From: an uncultured Planctomycetota bacterium
GTDB taxonomy: Bacteria; Planctomycetota; Phycisphaerae; Sedimentisphaerales; UBA12454
Reading direction: 5' to 3'
DNA length: 64,000 bases
Assembly: GCA_903847315.1 (NCBI GenBank)
Contig: CAINDG010000038.1
Location: 67,750-131,749, forward strand
Part shown: in pieces, positions 1,850 to 6,751 of the stretch
Position numbering within the stretch: position 1 is the first letter of the stretch
Layout: each line of letters starts with the position of its first letter
The notes under the pieces: generated by a model
What the model was told of the DNA's origin: nothing
What the model saw: the letters and a program-made list of their open reading frames with translations, nothing else
Database searches by the model: none
Program-made: the position numbers and the translations under genes

Positions 1850-2875
1850 TTAGCAAAGATTTACACTTTTGCATATTGGACAACCACCGAGGCAAATCTT
1901 TCTATGAGAACAATCCGGGCAATTATCTGCAAACAATTTCTCTCGGAATTCTCTAAACATATTTGAATTCTGCCATGTGTCTAGAATGTTACCATCATTG
2001 ACAGGAACACCTACCTTAGTTGGTTCCATGAACGAGCATGGATACATTCGCATATCTTCTGATATGAACATTGAAAATCTAGCTGCTTCACATGCATCGT
2101 AGAATGATGGTTTAATGTTTGTAAAATATGCAAGGCCAGACACCATACAACTATCGAAACCAATTCGAAAAGATTGTTCTCGATTTTGTACTAATTCGAA
2201 AAAACATTCTAAATCTTTTTTGTTTACTGATGAAAGTTGTTTTGAAGTTTGTCTGCCAATTGGTTTATAGTTTAAAAATATAATAGCATTTACACCAGAA
2301 AGAAATGGCGGAGGTTCTTTCAGCCAAGAAATTGCGGTACCTATGCTCAGAGAATCAAGAACGAAATGAATATTTGTCTTCATACCGACATTGATAAGCT
2401 TTTTTAAAGCCGCCTCAAACTCATTATAAGGACTGTATGCGCTTACGGCAACGGCGCCACAGTATTTACATGATGCTTTAATTACATCAGAGAATAACCC
2501 TCGCCCGTTTGACGTATAAGAAGGAATAATGCCATATTTCTCTCTGGTCAGTTTCAGGATTTCAGCAAACTTCGGATGCTGATTGGGGTTTCCACCTCCA
2601 AGAGCAACTTGTAAAACTCCCATTGCAGCCGCTTGCTTCATTATAATTTCGTAATTTGCAAGACTTATATGTTTACCTTTAGTGCTTGAATTACGATAAC
2701 AGATTAAACAATTTCGATCACACCATCCAGTTATAGATATATCCATCAACTCAGGTCCATGTTGAGACCATTTAGGCTCAAGGAATCCTTGTTCCTCAAT
2801 CCTAGCGAAAAAGCCTGTATGAAGATTAAATACAGTGGTGTAGTGTTCATTGGCGAAATGTTTAATATGGAGCAT
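1850..2875 (-). CDS. Radical SAM enzyme with C-terminal SPASM (auxiliary 4Fe-4S) domain; gene 4 of the island operon
   Basis: 341 aa. CX3CX2C motif WCDRNCLICY (C52/C56/C59, nt 2699-2722). GGGNP resembles the GGE-type SAM motif. C-terminal CPDCSHRKICLGGC is the CX2CX5CX3C SPASM signature (nt 1880-1921), with extra Cys at 335 and 341. The ATG lies 6 nt after the upstream stop. Confidence 0.85.
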   Translation of the reverse strand: MLHIKHFANEHYTTVFNLHTGFFARIEEQGFLEPKWSQHGPELMDISITGWCDRNCLICYRNSSTKGKHISLANYEIIMKQAAAMGVLQVALGGGNPNQHPKFAEILKLTREKYGIIPSYTSNGRGLFSDVIKASCKYCGAVAVSAYSPYNEFEAALKKLINVGMKTNIHFVLDSLSIGTAISWLKEPPPFLSGVNAIIFLNYKPIGRQTSKQLSSVNKKDLECFFELVQNREQSFRIGFDSCMVSGLAYFTNIKPSFYDACEAARFSMFISEDMRMYPCSFMEPTKVGVPVNDGNILDTWQNSNMFREFREKLFADNCPDCSHRKICLGGCPICKSVNLC

Positions 2876-2881
2876 AAAATA

Positions 2882-3301
2882 CTACCAACCACACTCCAAA
2901 GCATTTATATATAATTCAGGACGATCTATTTCGAAGATCTCAGTACACAAAAAGCTCTCTGGCGATTCACCCTCGCTGCGTAAAGTACCAATGTAAACAT
3001 CCATACCCACTTCGAGAGCATGCTCTGCTCGTTTAGCGGTTGATGGAGAGTGAATGTGTCGTTTCAGTAAAGACTTAATATCTGATGTTGGCCCCCAATA
3101 TTCGGATTTAGCTGCATCTTGTACATTTTCCATCTTTGAACAGAGCAACTCAAACAATTCCTTTCCAAAGGATTCTAAATGTGAACCTTGCTTTATCCCC
3201 AAGGCTTCTAGAAATACTTCCTTATTCGGTTTTCCTTTAGAGATGATAATAAATGAAGTCGATGAACTATTCGTAACATAATCAAATCTAATTTTCATCA
3301 T
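2882..3301 (-). CDS. Orphan 139-aa protein; gene 3 of the island operon
   Basis: No family recognised. N-terminus is MMKIRFDYVTNSSSTSFIIIS and the C-terminus ends ...ELYINALECGW. The ATG at 3301 overlaps the preceding gene by 14 nt and has GGAGAAG immediately upstream. Confidence 0.7.
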   Translation of the reverse strand: MMKIRFDYVTNSSSTSFIIISKGKPNKEVFLEALGIKQGSHLESFGKELFELLCSKMENVQDAAKSEYWGPTSDIKSLLKRHIHSPSTAKRAEHALEVGMDVYIGTLRSEGESPESFLCTEIFEIDRPELYINALECGW

Positions 3302-3737
3302 CTTCTCCTATGAGTTCAGCATTTAAGGTTTTCAAAATAACCTTGCGACCATTTTCCGTGTCTTCCCAAAGCGTATCTATTTGATAATCTCTGCCCCACC
3401 GAAAACTTTTAAGTAAAAGCAAGCAATTATGTGATTTAACCAATTTAGATATTTCTGACAAATAGATTTCATCGATAGCATATTTATGATAAAGGAAGCT
3501 TAGTATATTTGTGTACTCTTCCTTGTAAAATTTTAAATATTCGGCTCTTAAATCAATAGATGTATCAATAAAATATGCATATATTCTTTCAACAAGTTCT
3601 GACATATATGTCCCCGGTATTACATTGGCATTTTTTAAAATATTTTTAAGCTTGGGACGATTTTTTGAAATAACAATAATTCCATTATTTGTCCTTACAA
3701 GAAAAATTTTTCCATTTTGTTGCATTTTCTCTTTCAT
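3288..3737 (-). CDS. Orphan 149-aa protein with acidic C-terminal tail; gene 2 of the island operon
   Basis: No family recognised. It ends ...AELIGEDDEN. The ATG lies 3 nt after the NTPase stop (TAA-agt-ATG, 3743-3735). Confidence 0.7.
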   Translation of the reverse strand: MKEKMQQNGKIFLVRTNNGIIVISKNRPKLKNILKNANVIPGTYMSELVERIYAYFIDTSIDLRAEYLKFYKEEYTNILSFLYHKYAIDEIYLSEISKLVKSHNCLLLLKSFRWGRDYQIDTLWEDTENGRKVILKTLNAELIGEDDEN

Positions 3738-3740
3738 ACT

Positions 3741-6668
3741 TTAAATACAATCCTTTTTAAAACCTCGAAGATGTTGCATAATATGGTTGTTCATAATCTG
3801 TGTTGCAATTTTTGGACGGCGTTGCTTAAATTCCCAAAAGATATCCTGAACTGGGTGCATATAGTCATATCCTTCTATATTCCAAAGATATAACAAAATC
3901 CTAACTAAACCTTTATATGCAGCATCCCATTTATTACCAAGTAATAATGGTTTTAGATGTTCTACAAGTCTATCAATAGGATAAATTCCCAGATATTTGT
4001 CGAATGTATATTTACACAAAAATTGAAAAGTATCGTCATTCACGGTATCGAAAATATCAAATAAAAGGAAGATATTTGCATGTGGGTATATTTGAGAATC
4101 GTACCGACAAAGCAAGTTGGCAACAATATGCGGCGCTGTAGGATTATTCTGATTACATGCTTCTTTTAACACTTTGTCATCGTCCGCAGTGATTGCTTCT
4201 TCATCCAGTTCAAAGATATGTTCATAAAAGACATTTTGGTACCATGGTAAATATTTTATTATATCAATAGCGTTATTTTCTTTTTTTTGTCGTAAAGCGA
4301 AAAAGAGATATTCTTGTAATCCTTCTGCTACAGTGAGCTTAGGAACAGTTAATTTTTCGACGAGATGTTTAAATTTAGCAGCATCTTCTTTTAAAACAAT
4401 ATTTATAAGGTAGTTAGAAATCAGAAAATCTCTACAAGTATCGAATGTAAAATTTATGACTTCATTTTGGACAAATATTTTATTTGTATCGATGTCTTTT
4501 CTTAGCAAAATGTCTTCATCTATCAACTCTAGTAGTAACTTTGATTGATCTGTGTCAAAAATCGAAAATGGCACATCTGAATAAATATTTTGCTTTATCA
4601 TCCAACTGATAATCTTTTTTAGGATAGCCCAATAAGGTCTTTGTTTTCCTATAGGAGTATTTATTGAAGGGGTCTGATCATTAAAATCGCCGAATTTCTT
4701 CTGGAAATATTTATGAAAGATTTCTTCCCGTCTTATATGACGGATAAATGGAATTCGTTTCAATGATTTTGCGGTATGGTCGCCATAAGCCTCACAGAAA
4801 ACTCTTAACAAAAAGGGGTCATTTTCAAATTGTTTAAAAGCATGTTCCGATATTCTATTGGCATATATTTTGAAAAATTTTAAATAACCCCTAACTAATC
4901 GTTGTTTGTGTTCTTCAGACATATGCCGATGGATTTCGCGTTCTATAATCATTTTGTTTGCGAAACTGCTTTTGAGCAAATTTCCAAATCTGATGTCAAA
5001 ATATTCTGAGCGGCAAGTTAATATTACCCGAATATGAGAGTATTCAATACATTTTTCGATAAATCTTTCTATTTCAGATGAAAAGACCTTTATTTCTGGA
5101 TGTTCATTGATAGCATCAAACAAAATAATACCTGCTGTGCCTCTTCTTCTTGCTTCTTCATTTATATCCTGCAATACAGTATCAAATAAACCATTATTTC
5201 CATATATACCTCGTGCAAAATAATTTTGCAGTTCACCATGACTAACATTTGCTAATTCCTTGCCAGTAAAAAAGACGCACGGAATACTACGTTTGGTAAG
5301 ACAATTTTCGGCTAAGTCGCATACGAAATTAGTTTTTCCTTGGCCCGCCTTTGAAACAATGGCGAATACTTTAGCTTTAGCTATTTCACTTTTTTCAAGA
5401 AAAAGTTCCTTAACATGTTCGTTAAGAGAGTGTGCTTTGTCACAAAAATGCCATGAAGTTTCTTCAATAATATGCCTTTTTAATTTTGGAGCTTGACGGA
5501 TTAGGGATGTGCGACTTTTACGGTCCAATGCAGATAATTTTCGGGAAATATTCTCTACAATTTTTTGAAAACGAATAATGTTTTTATCTGTATGTTCAAA
5601 GTTAAATTTGAATTTTTTAAAATTTAAATTGAATTCTAGAGGTTTGAGCCCCGAATGCTTAAGTAAACGATTAATTTCATACAAATTGATACTTTCGAAT
5701 TCATAGAGTAACTTTTCCAAAAAAAGAGCTGGATGACAGAATATTCTTGCTTTTTCTTTGACATCACCTACTTCAATAAATATTTCCGGAATGTATTTTT
5801 TGCTGTTTTTTTCAGCGGCAATGCGATTTTGCAGACGTTTGGTCAAAATAGCCGTGATACTTTCTCCGGCTTGTTGTAGGACTGGTACTTTAAAAGTTGC
5901 TTCTGCCGAAATCCTTTCCGCTAAAGAGTTTCTTGTAATCTCTCCACCATTTATTGCAAAGTCGGTAGCCATTTTATACAAAATGGCATGTAAACTCGTT
6001 GCCTTACGAAAATCTTTGTCACCAACGGTTTCTTGTAGGAGATGAATACAATCTAAAGTGTCGCGTCCTGTTCTTGCGGTAAAATCGAAAGATAGAACAA
6101 TAAAATGTTTTAGTAAATGATGAACTTGAATTTTGGTTGGTTTTTTCCCAATTACTTTTTTTATTCCTGCTTCAAATGCATTCAATATATTTGTTTTAGT
6201 TTTAAACTTCAGCGTTTTCTGGTAAAATGCGTCGGGAGTGGATGATGTTTTAGCCCATTCAAGCAATTCCGCAACATGCCTTTTGACAGTTGAATTATTA
6301 CACACTTCACCAATTGCCAATCCTACACTATCATCATTCTTAAAATTTTTATCGGATAATTGATCCCAAACTTCGTTTACTACTTTGATAAAATCATCGT
6401 TCTTTGAAAATGTGATATTGTGTTTAACTTGCAAACATAATCGCTTTTTTATGCCTGTCGAAGTTTCACAATACAAAACAATATCATCAATGGGACAATC
6501 TCTATTTTTTTGTTGTAAACCAACTTCTTTGATTAAAGCATCTGGCATGCCACGAGGTGCTTCTTGACGCATGAGTCGGAGCAAGTAATAAATAGCTACT
6601 AGGCGGTCGAAGTAATCTCCACCACCACCCATAGAAAACGGATTTACTGCTGCTGCTTTCTTAGCCAT
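3741..6668 (-). CDS. NACHT-like STAND P-loop NTPase with PD-(D/E)xK-like (Cap4/DUF4297-like) N-terminal module and long helical C-terminal region; gene 1 of the island operon
   Basis: 975 aa. Walker A is SKAGQGKT (aa 439-446, nt 5331-5354). Walker B is IILFDAINE (aa 514-522, nt 5103-5129). A downstream RVILTCRSE block resembles the NACHT TSRP segment. The N-terminus has GGGGDYFDRLVAIYYLLRL, then PIDDIVLY..(x)..LCLQVKH (aa 59-83, nt about 6423-6491), a D..QxK arrangement like restriction-fold nucleases. About 350 C-terminal aa are unassigned. Confidence 0.8.
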   Translation of the reverse strand: MAKKAAAVNPFSMGGGGDYFDRLVAIYYLLRLMRQEAPRGMPDALIKEVGLQQKNRDCPIDDIVLYCETSTGIKKRLCLQVKHNITFSKNDDFIKVVNEVWDQLSDKNFKNDDSVGLAIGEVCNNSTVKRHVAELLEWAKTSSTPDAFYQKTLKFKTKTNILNAFEAGIKKVIGKKPTKIQVHHLLKHFIVLSFDFTARTGRDTLDCIHLLQETVGDKDFRKATSLHAILYKMATDFAINGGEITRNSLAERISAEATFKVPVLQQAGESITAILTKRLQNRIAAEKNSKKYIPEIFIEVGDVKEKARIFCHPALFLEKLLYEFESINLYEINRLLKHSGLKPLEFNLNFKKFKFNFEHTDKNIIRFQKIVENISRKLSALDRKSRTSLIRQAPKLKRHIIEETSWHFCDKAHSLNEHVKELFLEKSEIAKAKVFAIVSKAGQGKTNFVCDLAENCLTKRSIPCVFFTGKELANVSHGELQNYFARGIYGNNGLFDTVLQDINEEARRRGTAGIILFDAINEHPEIKVFSSEIERFIEKCIEYSHIRVILTCRSEYFDIRFGNLLKSSFANKMIIEREIHRHMSEEHKQRLVRGYLKFFKIYANRISEHAFKQFENDPFLLRVFCEAYGDHTAKSLKRIPFIRHIRREEIFHKYFQKKFGDFNDQTPSINTPIGKQRPYWAILKKIISWMIKQNIYSDVPFSIFDTDQSKLLLELIDEDILLRKDIDTNKIFVQNEVINFTFDTCRDFLISNYLINIVLKEDAAKFKHLVEKLTVPKLTVAEGLQEYLFFALRQKKENNAIDIIKYLPWYQNVFYEHIFELDEEAITADDDKVLKEACNQNNPTAPHIVANLLCRYDSQIYPHANIFLLFDIFDTVNDDTFQFLCKYTFDKYLGIYPIDRLVEHLKPLLLGNKWDAAYKGLVRILLYLWNIEGYDYMHPVQDIFWEFKQRRPKIATQIMNNHIMQHLRGFKKDCI

Positions 6669-6721: not shown

Positions 6722-6751
6722 ATTATACGGTGGAGATAAGGGAAAAGGCAA
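6722..6751 (-). promoter_or_regulatory. Putative sigma70-type promoter of the island operon
   Basis: Minus strand reads TTGCCT (6751-6746), an 18-nt spacer, then TATAAT (6727-6722). This sits about 55 nt upstream of the ATG at 6668. An AGGT SD-like sequence lies 12 nt before the ATG. Confidence 0.35.

Follow-up and report, generated by a model that had tools for sequence, protein, structure and literature searches.

In a 64,000-nucleotide stretch of contig CAINDG010000038.1 from an uncultured Planctomycetota bacterium (the window), the minus-strand gene at positions 1850 to 2875 encodes a radical S-adenosylmethionine (SAM) enzyme with a predicted SPASM domain. The gene closes a four-gene operon that opens with a STAND NTPase and continues through two small proteins, here called p149 and p139 (Table 1). 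All four genes lie on the minus strand, with junctions of +3 (STAND/p149), -14 (p149/p139), and +6 nucleotides (p139 to the radical SAM enzyme, or rSAM), and an earlier note on this DNA was right to place the enzyme at the end of a STAND operon. The catalytic motifs of the rSAM are intact, the four genes are strictly conserved together, p139 and p149 are paralogs, p139-like proteins pair with related rSAMs where STAND is absent, and the cassette occurs in defense and mobile contexts. We hypothesize, at a probability of roughly 40%, that the rSAM modifies or docks p139, which would then work with the STAND protein. The component claims (p139 as substrate, the site and type of modification, binding to STAND, and an anti-phage role) are inferred.

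Bacterial nucleotide-binding leucine-rich repeat (NLR)-like receptors of the Avs/STAND type normally consist of one protein, which binds a phage protein and then fires an attached effector. KpAvs2 is the published exception in which such a receptor is accompanied by a radical SAM enzyme, and the role of the enzyme there was left unexplained. The earlier note had regarded its proposed roles for the rSAM as a new use of radical SAM chemistry in a STAND context, a claim that is not supported because the KpAvs2-Avap1-Avap2 operon of 2024 (PMC11564622) and the FxSxx/AP-ATPase modules predicted in 2020 (PMC7159879) preceded it. The cassette is set apart from both precedents by its SPASM domain, its different small proteins, and its shorter STAND protein. 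The cassette family also appears far more abundant than the KpAvs2 type, with more than 1,000 sequence clusters in more than 15 phyla, including archaea, plasmids, and proviruses. Because this abundant family keeps the SPASM domain and offers a candidate substrate with an invariant motif, the role of a radical enzyme in NLR-like immunity is now testable.

The terminal radical SAM enzyme

A protein search with the rSAM returned 1,969 proteins at an E value of 1e-5 or lower. The 120 homologs listed belong to cyanobacteria, methanogens, Desulfobacterota, and further groups and all share at least 52% identity with the rSAM along the full length, so this is not a chance open reading frame (ORF). 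The enzyme belongs to the radical SAM superfamily (Pfam PF04055, 45.3 bits against a gathering threshold of 29.5). The complete core proposed in the earlier note is borne out by a family alignment of 26 sequences, in which C52, C56, and C59 (in CDRNCLIC, starting at residue 52) and GGGNP (starting at 93) are invariant; the CX3CX2C motif is found in 119 of the 120 listed homologs. The cysteines of the protein lie at positions 52, 56, 59, 136, 139, 224, 243, 262, 280, 319, 322, 328, 332, 335, and 341, of which C139 is an additional invariant residue of the core.

The C-terminal region passes the thresholds of SPASM PF13186 (22.9 against 21.5 bits) and of the SPASM domain model TIGR04085 (33.8 against 27), the latter being the only listed NCBIfam model whose own cutoff the rSAM passes. 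CSFMEP starts at residue 280 and CPDCSHRKICLGGCPICKSVNLC spans residues 319 to 341, giving the spacing C262-x17-C280 ... C319-x2-C322-x5-C328-x3-C332-x8-C341 plus C243, the seven-Cys SPASM signature; the CX2CX5CX3C part is found in 113 of the 120 listed homologs. Most of the seven cysteines assigned to this region in the earlier note stand (C280, C319, C322, C328, C332, and C341), although C335 is not conserved in the family alignment and C262 had been missed. The auxiliary-cluster cysteines kept in the alignment are C243, C262, C280, C319 (near-invariant), C322, C328, C332, and C341, with C243 probably the eighth cluster ligand, and the predicted SPASM domain thus holds cysteines for two auxiliary [4Fe-4S] clusters. 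Its first spacing, CX17C without GX4C, is longer than the textbook CX9-15GX4C. Ahead of the core, the AlphaFold2 (AF2) model of the enzyme (mean predicted local distance difference test score [pLDDT] 78.7, predicted template modeling score [pTM] 0.83) has strands at residues 2 to 7, 12 to 17, and 23 to 27, and the extension that they form carries the invariant residues Y12, F16, T20, G21, F22, R25, E27, P34, W36, G40, and E42.

A Foldseek search with this model returned SuiB first (E = 5e-13, template modeling [TM] score 0.68 to 0.72), followed by PqqE, CteB, SkfB, and anSME, and the rSAM family profile matched SuiB (E = 2e-15), PqqE, and anSME among solved structures. Because its nearest relatives in both sequence and structure are these enzymes, we place the rSAM among the peptide- and protein-modifying SPASM enzymes, the type named in the earlier note, and predict that it is a member of no characterized one. 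The curated families anSME, MftC, PqqE, GeoRSP, viperin, and others were ruled out by scores far under their cutoffs: the top NCBIfam equivalog was GeoRSP TIGR04303 at 61.5 bits against 400, and all 25 listed equivalog and exception models, including WgkB, MftC, ScmE, NirJ2, PqqE, and viperin, behaved likewise. The family placement proposed in the earlier note as a check accordingly yielded no tight grouping with a characterized family such as the sulfatase maturases. The prokaryotic viperin model NF038283 scored 27.7 bits against a cutoff of 180 and aligned with residues 48 to 166 only. Prokaryotic viperins (pVips) share with the rSAM a radical SAM fold in an anti-phage context and weak HMM (hidden Markov model) similarity over the core; unlike the window enzyme, they are single-gene systems, and the rSAM has a SPASM domain and no nucleotide kinase partner.

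With SuiB (the streptide Lys-Trp cyclase), PqqE, CteB, SkfB, and MftC, the rSAM shares a radical SAM core followed by a C-terminal SPASM domain with two predicted auxiliary clusters. As in operons of SPASM enzymes that mature peptides made by the ribosome and modified post-translationally (RiPPs), the gene of the likely substrate lies directly upstream, and MftC and WgkB are among the top NCBIfam matches. The enzyme differs from these maturases in its scores (52 to 61 bits against cutoffs of 265 to 650), in its first SPASM spacing, in having the 45-residue beta-sheet extension in place of a PqqD-like RiPP recognition element, in a candidate substrate that is a folded protein of about 135 residues and not a short peptide, and in an operon context of a STAND NTPase and not of transporters or peptidases. 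The sulfatase maturase anSME offers a parallel for a SPASM enzyme that acts on a folded protein, oxidizing Ser or Cys, and it matches the model at a TM score of 0.64, while the candidate motif here is Ser rich; however, its sequence similarity to the rSAM is weak (E = 4e-4), p139 lacks a (C/S)xPxR motif, and no sulfatase occurs in the 80 cassette neighborhoods described below.

Mean pairwise identity is 56% for the rSAM, 40% for p139, 30% for STAND, and 28% for p149, the fastest-evolving component. Because its catalytic and cluster residues are all invariant and it is the most conserved component of the cassette, catalysis by the rSAM appears to be under selection. That the protein is instead a catalytically dead scaffold kept for assembly alone is extremely unlikely: parts of the fold are dispensable in related systems, since the SPASM domain is wholly missing from Avap1-type and phage relatives, but CX3CX2C, GGGNP, and the SPASM cysteines are invariant or nearly so across phyla in the cassette family.

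The cassette and the pairing of p139 with the rSAM

A scan covering a single genome for each species returned 178 relatives, and the cassette counts given here use the best 80 loci. All 80 carry STAND, p149, p139, and rSAM genes on one strand in the same order, with p149 requiring an HMM to appear in every locus, and gene spacing is constant, p139 ending a few nucleotides before the rSAM start. The loci cover more than 15 phyla, archaea among them: Verrucomicrobiota, Chloroflexota, Cyanobacteria, Desulfobacterota, Acidobacteriota, Bacteroidota, Nitrospirota, Campylobacterota, Firmicutes, alpha-, gamma-, and zeta-proteobacteria, Chlamydiae, Methanoregula, Methanosarcinales, and Micrarchaeota are represented. 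The full cassette also occurs in the same gene order on six IMG/VR predicted viral contigs, and on the pAt plasmid of Agrobacterium tumefaciens, where it is annotated as [quoted passage not shown] Its cultured carriers include Vibrio atypicus DSM 25292 (L023), Orbus sasakiae JCM 18050 (L042), A. tumefaciens Ach5 (pAt, L081), Clostridium puniceum DSM 2619 (L024), and Flavobacterium granuli (L077). The distance matrices of the four proteins correlate at r values of 0.88 to 0.95, which indicates that the cassette is inherited as a block; with all components co-varying this strongly, mirror-tree partial correlations are not decisive for the partner of the rSAM. The cassette has no PADLOC v2 or NCBIfam model, and the four-gene, SPASM-bearing family is not described in the literature that we searched.

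The paralogy of p139 and p149 is supported by profile-profile comparison (hhalign probability 97.7%, E = 2.5e-12), and the p139 HMM cross-matches the p149 ORF in 25 loci. The p139 gene begins ATGATG, and the family consensus start is the second Met (138 residues), likely the true start; gene callers begin p149 at Met5 (145 residues). Pfam returned no match for p139 (65 members) or p149 (52 sequences). The NSSSTSF motif stands at position 10, nine residues past the start, in 115 of 120 database homologs of p139. Among 137 more divergent representatives TNSSST is retained, 126 end in W, Y, or F, and Cys119 is present in some but not all. A profile search found 1,085 p139 representatives at 50% identity, and no Rosetta-stone fusion with an rSAM or STAND protein was seen, the best 150 of these all being standalone proteins of 81 to 161 residues. 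In the AF2 model of p139 (pLDDT 83, pTM 0.79) the least confident parts are the first 10 residues (pLDDT 53) and the last 9 (pLDDT 71), and a fold search with this model found nothing in the PDB or BFVD (best E values of 0.59 and 0.76).

Viral contigs carry a related pair without STAND. Two of them (L098 and L099) carry the gene of a SPASM-less rSAM that shares 36% identity with the window enzyme (E = 3e-40), with small proteins beginning ..HSFVDVITNSST.. immediately 5' of it, and in a phage tail-gene region on another (L101) MIIIQNHVGNSSSTSYYII lies directly upstream of an rSAM/SPASM relative. With the phage rSAM as seed, a scan yielded 33 viral loci, 24 of which have one to four tandem ORFs of 92 to 233 amino acids directly upstream of the rSAM and no STAND gene. 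These tandem proteins share a conserved N-terminal HSxxDxITNSST and vary in the remainder; a profile of 41 of them matches the p139 profile over the N-terminal ~45 residues (probability 88 to 91%, E = 1 to 3e-6), and Pfam has no family for them. The motif is rare outside p139-type proteins (~25 of ~6,850 ORFs) and essentially absent there from the first 30 residues. An N-terminal extension like that of the window rSAM is also visible in the phage rSAM relatives. The module of TNSST protein and SPASM-less rSAM has no counterpart in 50,697 GenBank phage records and was seen in metagenomic viral contigs only. The arrays lie on IMG/VR viral contigs L103 to L132 (for example, L111:1364-2996, L119:1187-2959, and L106:1508-3001), and their rSAMs lack SPASM.

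Because these phage contigs carry TNSST proteins with a related rSAM in the absence of STAND, the small protein and the rSAM appear to be the core unit, and the predicted minimal conserved unit is one or more TNSS(S)T proteins plus an rSAM. Paralogs with a conserved N terminus placed before a single rSAM have the layout of precursors and their maturase, which is the strongest evidence that p139 is a substrate or an obligate partner. A small-protein family with neither a Pfam model nor a fold match thus occurs on both sides of the phage-host conflict. The earlier note had proposed the co-encoded small proteins, among others, as targets of the enzyme. We consider a protein-modifying rSAM that acts on an operon partner reasonable, and the proposal is now narrowed to p139: TNSS(S)T proteins like p139 occur beside related rSAMs even without STAND, which singles this protein out as the candidate, and p149, having lost the conserved motif, is an unlikely substrate.

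We hypothesize that the rSAM and p139 would be the functional core of an NLR-like (Avs2-related) cassette of four genes that moves horizontally. The N-terminal beta-sheet extension of the rSAM may dock the flexible, invariant N-terminal segment of p139 (MKIxxDFVTNSSSTSF), and 5'-deoxyadenosyl radical chemistry, together with the two auxiliary clusters, would install a post-translational modification on p139, most likely in or next to the NSSST loop or, alternatively, at the invariant C-terminal aromatic residue. Once modified, p139 would bind, probably as a pair with p149, the STAND region between effector and NTPase, by analogy with Avap2 and KpAvs2, and this binding may license or tune STAND activation. 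The activated STAND protein would fire its exchangeable N-terminal effector, which in the window is a putative PD-(D/E)xK-type nuclease. The experimentally validated KpAvs2 operon, which also uses a small protein and a radical SAM enzyme as accessories, supports this reading.

Several observations weigh against this reading. An rSAM relative with 38% identity and an intact SPASM domain (L100) has no TNSST protein nearby, and RB43-like T4-type phages (167 GenBank records) carry a relative with 27% identity, again with no TNSST protein in the vicinity; since both stand alone, members of this rSAM clade can work without p139. No modification is reported for any of these systems in the literature searched. 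Instead of being a modification site, the invariant polar motif of p139 could serve as a ligand-binding or active-site loop, and a conserved Cys thioether crosslink through Cys119 is unlikely because this residue is lost in divergent members. Partial correlations, a weak measure, tie the rSAM more closely to STAND (0.45) than to p139 (0.20), and the four-gene family is missing from PADLOC v2 and from NCBIfam naming.

Phage relatives without a TNSST protein would also fit an rSAM that works on small molecules and makes an antiviral or signaling metabolite, in the manner of a viperin-like second effector or a generator of signals, with p139 and p149 as adaptors or regulators and not as substrates. 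Prokaryotic viperins are a precedent for radical SAM effectors in defense, the window enzyme shows weak similarity to them (PADLOC E = 1.6e-8; 27.7 bits with NF038283) and has viperins among its Foldseek matches, some SPASM/twitch enzymes that use small molecules, such as AhbD, NirJ, and BtrN, are also among the matches, and the need for Avap1 against some phages only (PMC11564622) fits an add-on activity. We nevertheless regard this alternative as unlikely. The pVip score lies far under its cutoff and reflects the generic core only, the closest full-length neighbors in structure and sequence are peptide maturases, and the pairing with TNSS(S)T proteins, including the tandem phage arrays, would be left unexplained; Avap1, admittedly only a distant relative, had neither viperin-type nucleotides nor a nucleoside triphosphate (NTP)-sized pocket (Bechon et al., PMC11564622).

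A bolder version of the p139 hypothesis, which we think doubtful though somewhat less so than the small-molecule alternative, is that the rSAM and TNSS(S)T protein form an ancient two-component module common to phages and hosts, that the modification of p139 supplies a cofactor or crosslink which the STAND nuclease needs for sensing or licensing, and that the phage arrays are an offensive or counter-defense mirror of it. If true, a prokaryotic NLR-type immune receptor would for the first time be seen to incorporate a radical protein-maturation step.

The STAND protein, its precedents, and defense context

The first protein of the operon belongs to the STAND/NACHT-like NTPases: it has their Walker A, Walker B, and sensor motifs, an effector at the N terminus, and a helical region at the C terminus. 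Its conserved residues include A441, G444, K445, T446, D518, N521-E522, and R553. The NCBIfam Avs2 model NF041813 scores 76 bits against a cutoff of 1,000, with residues 354 to 800 aligned to positions 86 to 530 of the 1,317-position profile, and PADLOC Avs2 models match only the NTPase and the helical region next to it, at E values of 1e-17 to 3e-23. At about 400 residues shorter than KpAvs2 and matched in the NTPase region alone, the protein is not a full-length Avs2 with a long C-terminal sensor. Among 36 members of the STAND family, 34 have a weak Avs2 match, 22 to 24 match NACHT or NPHP3_N, and 7 to 8 match nSTAND1/3.

The ~300 N-terminal residues of the window STAND protein are common to 8 of the 80 loci and contain the motifs PFSTGGGG, QQ, DD (61-62), and LQVKH (80-83), with invariant residues that include P10, F11, G14, G16-17, Q52-53, D61-D62, Q80, and H83; K82 in LQVKH is Lys in eight of nine sequences and Arg in one. 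From this motif pattern, without an HMM match, the domain is a probable PD-(D/E)xK-type nuclease. Other N-terminal domains among the 36 members are SMEK_N in 16, trypsin-like in 2, PNP_UDP in 1, and alpha/beta-hydrolase in 1, SMEK being a nuclease domain according to the literature on short prokaryotic Argonautes. The STAND effector is therefore exchangeable while the three accessory genes stay constant. The window effector domain (residues 1 to 300, positions 5769 to 6668) was also seen on other plasmid proteins from rhizobia, Pseudomonas, Hymenobacter, and Streptomyces (hits H16 to H26), annotated as "hypothetical," "ATP-binding," or "NACHT domain-containing," and without a Pfam match; it appears to be a shared, unnamed module. 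Between effector and NTPase, Y292, K304, and R308 are invariant and K291, F297, and E299 nearly so, whichever effector is attached, and the alignment of the PADLOC Avs2 model PDLC02162 begins at residue 281. By analogy with KpAvs2, this region may dock an accessory protein.

KpAvs2-Avap1-Avap2 is an Avs2 operon that has been validated by experiment and includes a radical SAM accessory (Bechon et al. 2024, Nat Commun, PMC11564622). KpAvs2 has 1,352 residues, an Mrr nuclease domain (catalytic K71), and a Walker A lysine at K337 (PMC11564622). Avap2, an HHpred match to DUF6375, binds the KpAvs2 helical bundle between nuclease and NTPase and is required for defense; its deletion was not obtained (PMC11564622). 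Avap1, the radical SAM protein, is needed against T2 and not against SECphi18, gave no detectable viperin-type products, has a predicted pocket that is not NTP sized, and is defined operationally by a PF04055 match within two genes of Avs2 (PMC11564622). For comparison we used KpAvs2-type operons from a Vibrio parahaemolyticus plasmid (NZ_OQ622008.1, L086) and two metagenome contigs (L088 and L090), which encode an rSAM of 309 to 332 residues, a DUF6375 protein (PF19902, 153 bits), and then an Avs2-like protein of 1,361 to 1,371 residues (NF041813, 242 bits).

Both kinds of operon combine an Avs2-type STAND protein bearing an N-terminal nuclease (probable in the window) with a radical SAM enzyme and a small protein of ~130 residues that has an invariant N-terminal segment, and the two rSAMs share the core and the N-terminal extension (F16, G21, W36, and P41). 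The gene order differs (rSAM-DUF6375-Avs2 there, STAND-p149-p139-rSAM here), as do the number of small proteins (one against two), the receptor (1,352 to 1,371 residues with a long C-terminal sensor and 242 bits to NF041813, against 975 residues and 76 bits), and the rSAM, which keeps a full SPASM domain in the window and has no SPASM cysteine in the Avap1 type. The two STAND proteins align over the NTPase only. The window rSAM has the PF04055 match of the Avap1 definition and lies three genes from a STAND protein, itself only a distant Avs2 relative. With 21% identity (E = 2e-8) to a SPASM-less enzyme it is not an Avap1 ortholog; the Avap1-type enzyme scores 56.7 bits on the family profile, and the shared extension suggests common ancestry and not membership. 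Nor are p139 and p149 Avap2: PF19902 matched none of the 65 p139 and 52 p149 sequences at an E value of 1 or lower, and hhalign against a 29-sequence DUF6375 profile gave probabilities of 0.9% and 0.2%. An ungapped, anchored comparison of N termini gave a weak, suggestive resemblance to DUF6375 (p of ~0.001 to 0.004 by a home-made score). A DUF6375 query found 35 sequence clusters against more than 1,000 for p139, figures that differ in reach, one search having used a single sequence and the other a profile.

The Vibrio operon (64474 to 69911) recurs in 11 further Vibrio plasmid records. These are conjugative multidrug-resistance plasmids, on which the operon lies just upstream of qnrVC6 and dfrA genes and the Avs2-like protein bears the RefSeq name "hypothetical protein." A two-gene variant of the Avap2 association was seen in L087:7001-9428, where a DUF6375 gene is followed by a 678-residue protein with a weak STAND-profile match and no adjacent rSAM, next to type III CRISPR RAMP/Csx19 genes.

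The second precedent is a computational prediction in which FxSxx-COOH peptide and rSAM-SPASM (FxsB) modules are coupled to an AP-ATPase of the STAND type in VMAP ternary systems (Kaur, Burroughs, Iyer, and Aravind 2020, PMC7159879). It likewise predicts a SPASM rSAM that modifies a small co-encoded protein in an NTP-dependent conflict system with a STAND ATPase. The vWA-MoxR-VMAP components, zincin peptidase, and C-terminal FxSxx peptide of those systems are all missing here, however; FxsB is not among the 25 best NCBIfam matches of the rSAM, and the conserved motif of the window cassette is N terminal.

The length of the STAND protein bears on a further alternative, in which rSAM, p139, and p149 together are an infection sensor that passes a signal to STAND, whether by modifying or capturing a phage protein, by offering p139 as bait for phage rSAMs or TNSST proteins, or by reporting SAM depletion. 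The cassette STAND proteins (975 residues in the window, typically ~885) lack the long C-terminal sensor of the 1,352- to 1,371-residue KpAvs2 type, p149 and STAND evolve fastest and co-vary most (partial r of 0.54), as at an arms-race interface, and phages encode homologs of both the rSAM and the small protein. This case is purely contextual, and the viral TNSST-rSAM modules come from metagenomic contigs, with none in the GenBank phage records; moreover, an rSAM and a p139 motif this well conserved suggest a fixed endogenous reaction and not the recognition of varied invaders, so that we rate a sensor trio as quite unlikely, below the small-molecule alternative. The possibility that the small proteins are split-off pieces of the Avs2 C-terminal sensor was rejected, as the p139 and p149 HMMs miss the 1,361-residue Vibrio Avs2.

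Among 128 ORFs flanking the cassette in ~33 loci, strong matches were found to BrxL, PglZ, DpdF, PDC-S02, Avs1a, MzaA, LmuA, the mad3 (MADS system) model, a DRT reverse transcriptase, and SoFic, so that BREX, Dpd, Lamassu, Avs1, and DRT systems are among its neighbors. Known defense genes thus often adjoin the cassette, and these unnormalized matches give its flanks a defense-island signature. These neighbors, together with plasmid and provirus carriage, modular effectors, and homology to the validated KpAvs2 NTPase region, indicate that the four-gene cassette is probably an anti-phage system.

A non-immune cassette for RiPP-like or protein-cofactor maturation, with the STAND ATPase as regulator or chaperone, would fit the position of the window cassette between housekeeping genes (the type II secretion gene gspC and purD) and outside a defense island, as well as a family without an experimental phage phenotype or a PADLOC or NCBIfam defense model. 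We judge this very unlikely, since the domains that swap at the STAND N terminus are nucleases, proteases, and hydrolases and not DNA-binding regulators, the NTPase is Avs2/NACHT-like, defense genes adjoin the cassette, plasmids and proviral contigs carry it, its spread across phyla is patchy at ~50% identity, and in the window it forms a low-GC island.

Operon features and other relatives

The features of the operon are collected in Table 1. The four-gene block has a GC content of 30 to 37% against 44 to 47% in its flanks and sits between a gspC-like gene and unrelated genes. Promoter and terminator scans around the operon were at background level, promoter-like sites being no commoner than in shuffled sequence, and an Rfam search around the operon matched no RNA element. 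A DNA search with the Orbus cassette for an Escherichia coli homolog gave no match.

Table 1 Window positions of the operon genes and of the motifs and regions discussed in the text
Feature	Position	Strand	Basis or conservation
Promoter-like TTGCCT-18-TATAAT, 5' of the STAND gene	6722..6751	-	10/12 positions match; weak evidence
STAND (NACHT/Avs2-like) NTPase, 975 aa, first gene of the operon	3741..6668	-	ORF
STAND N-terminal effector domain (aa 1-280), probable PD-(D/E)xK-type nuclease	5829..6668	-	Motif pattern
Pre-NTPase region (aa 281-430), EKNSKKYIPxVF motif	5379..5828	-	Conserved across different effectors
Walker A AGQGKT (aa 441-446) of STAND	5331..5348	-	A441, G444, K445, T446 invariant
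p149, p139 paralog without the NSSST motif	3288..3737	-	In 80/80 loci by HMM
p139, TNSS(S)T-family small protein, candidate rSAM substrate or partner	2882..3301	-	In 80/80 loci
NSSSTSF motif of p139 (aa 11-17)	3251..3271	-	In 190/194 sequences
C-terminal Trp139 of p139	2885..2887	-	Last residue Trp in 193/194 sequences
Radical SAM/SPASM enzyme, 341 aa, last gene of the operon	1850..2875	-	ORF translation
rSAM N-terminal extension (aa 1-45), predicted three-stranded beta-sheet	2741..2875	-	AF2 model
CX3CX2C cluster motif (C52, C56, C59)	2699..2722	-	Invariant in family alignment
GGGNP, "GGE"-type SAM-binding motif (aa 93-97)	2585..2599	-	G93-G95, N96, P97 invariant
SPASM region (aa 243-341): C243, C262, C280, C319, C322, C328, C332, C341	1853..2149	-	

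The 567-bp intergenic stretch 3' of the rSAM gene (1283 to 1849) is dense in short direct repeats, with AGTGAAA/AGTGAAT-type units at 1374 to 1468, a 34-nucleotide pair at 1472 to 1505 and 1543 to 1576, and 20-nucleotide units at 1514 to 1658. It also contains GC-rich hairpins, such as that at 1767 to 1786, and has no Rfam match. This stretch may be an insertion scar of the island or a regulatory region.

Further rSAM relatives were seen outside the cassette. On a Methylobacterium indicum plasmid (L084, NZ_AP024147.1, 56966 to 61260), a 600-residue "ATP-binding protein" stands with a 442-residue radical SAM protein, whose 33% identity to the window enzyme is confined to the core, and with three small hypothetical ORFs. 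The standalone SPASM homolog L100:5281-6450, on a 131-kb viral contig, has four Lcl_C-domain proteins, an NAPRTase, and a Cys-rich 71-residue ORF as neighbors. The RB43 relative (L136, HE858210.2, 92307 to 93452) is a 381-residue "protein of unknown function" that scores 146 bits with the family profile; this type has an N-terminal extension like that of the window enzyme, a CX7CX2C-like cluster spacing, and no TNSST protein within 3 kb. The T4-like phages that carry it infect Klebsiella, Enterobacter, Cronobacter, Citrobacter, and Escherichia.

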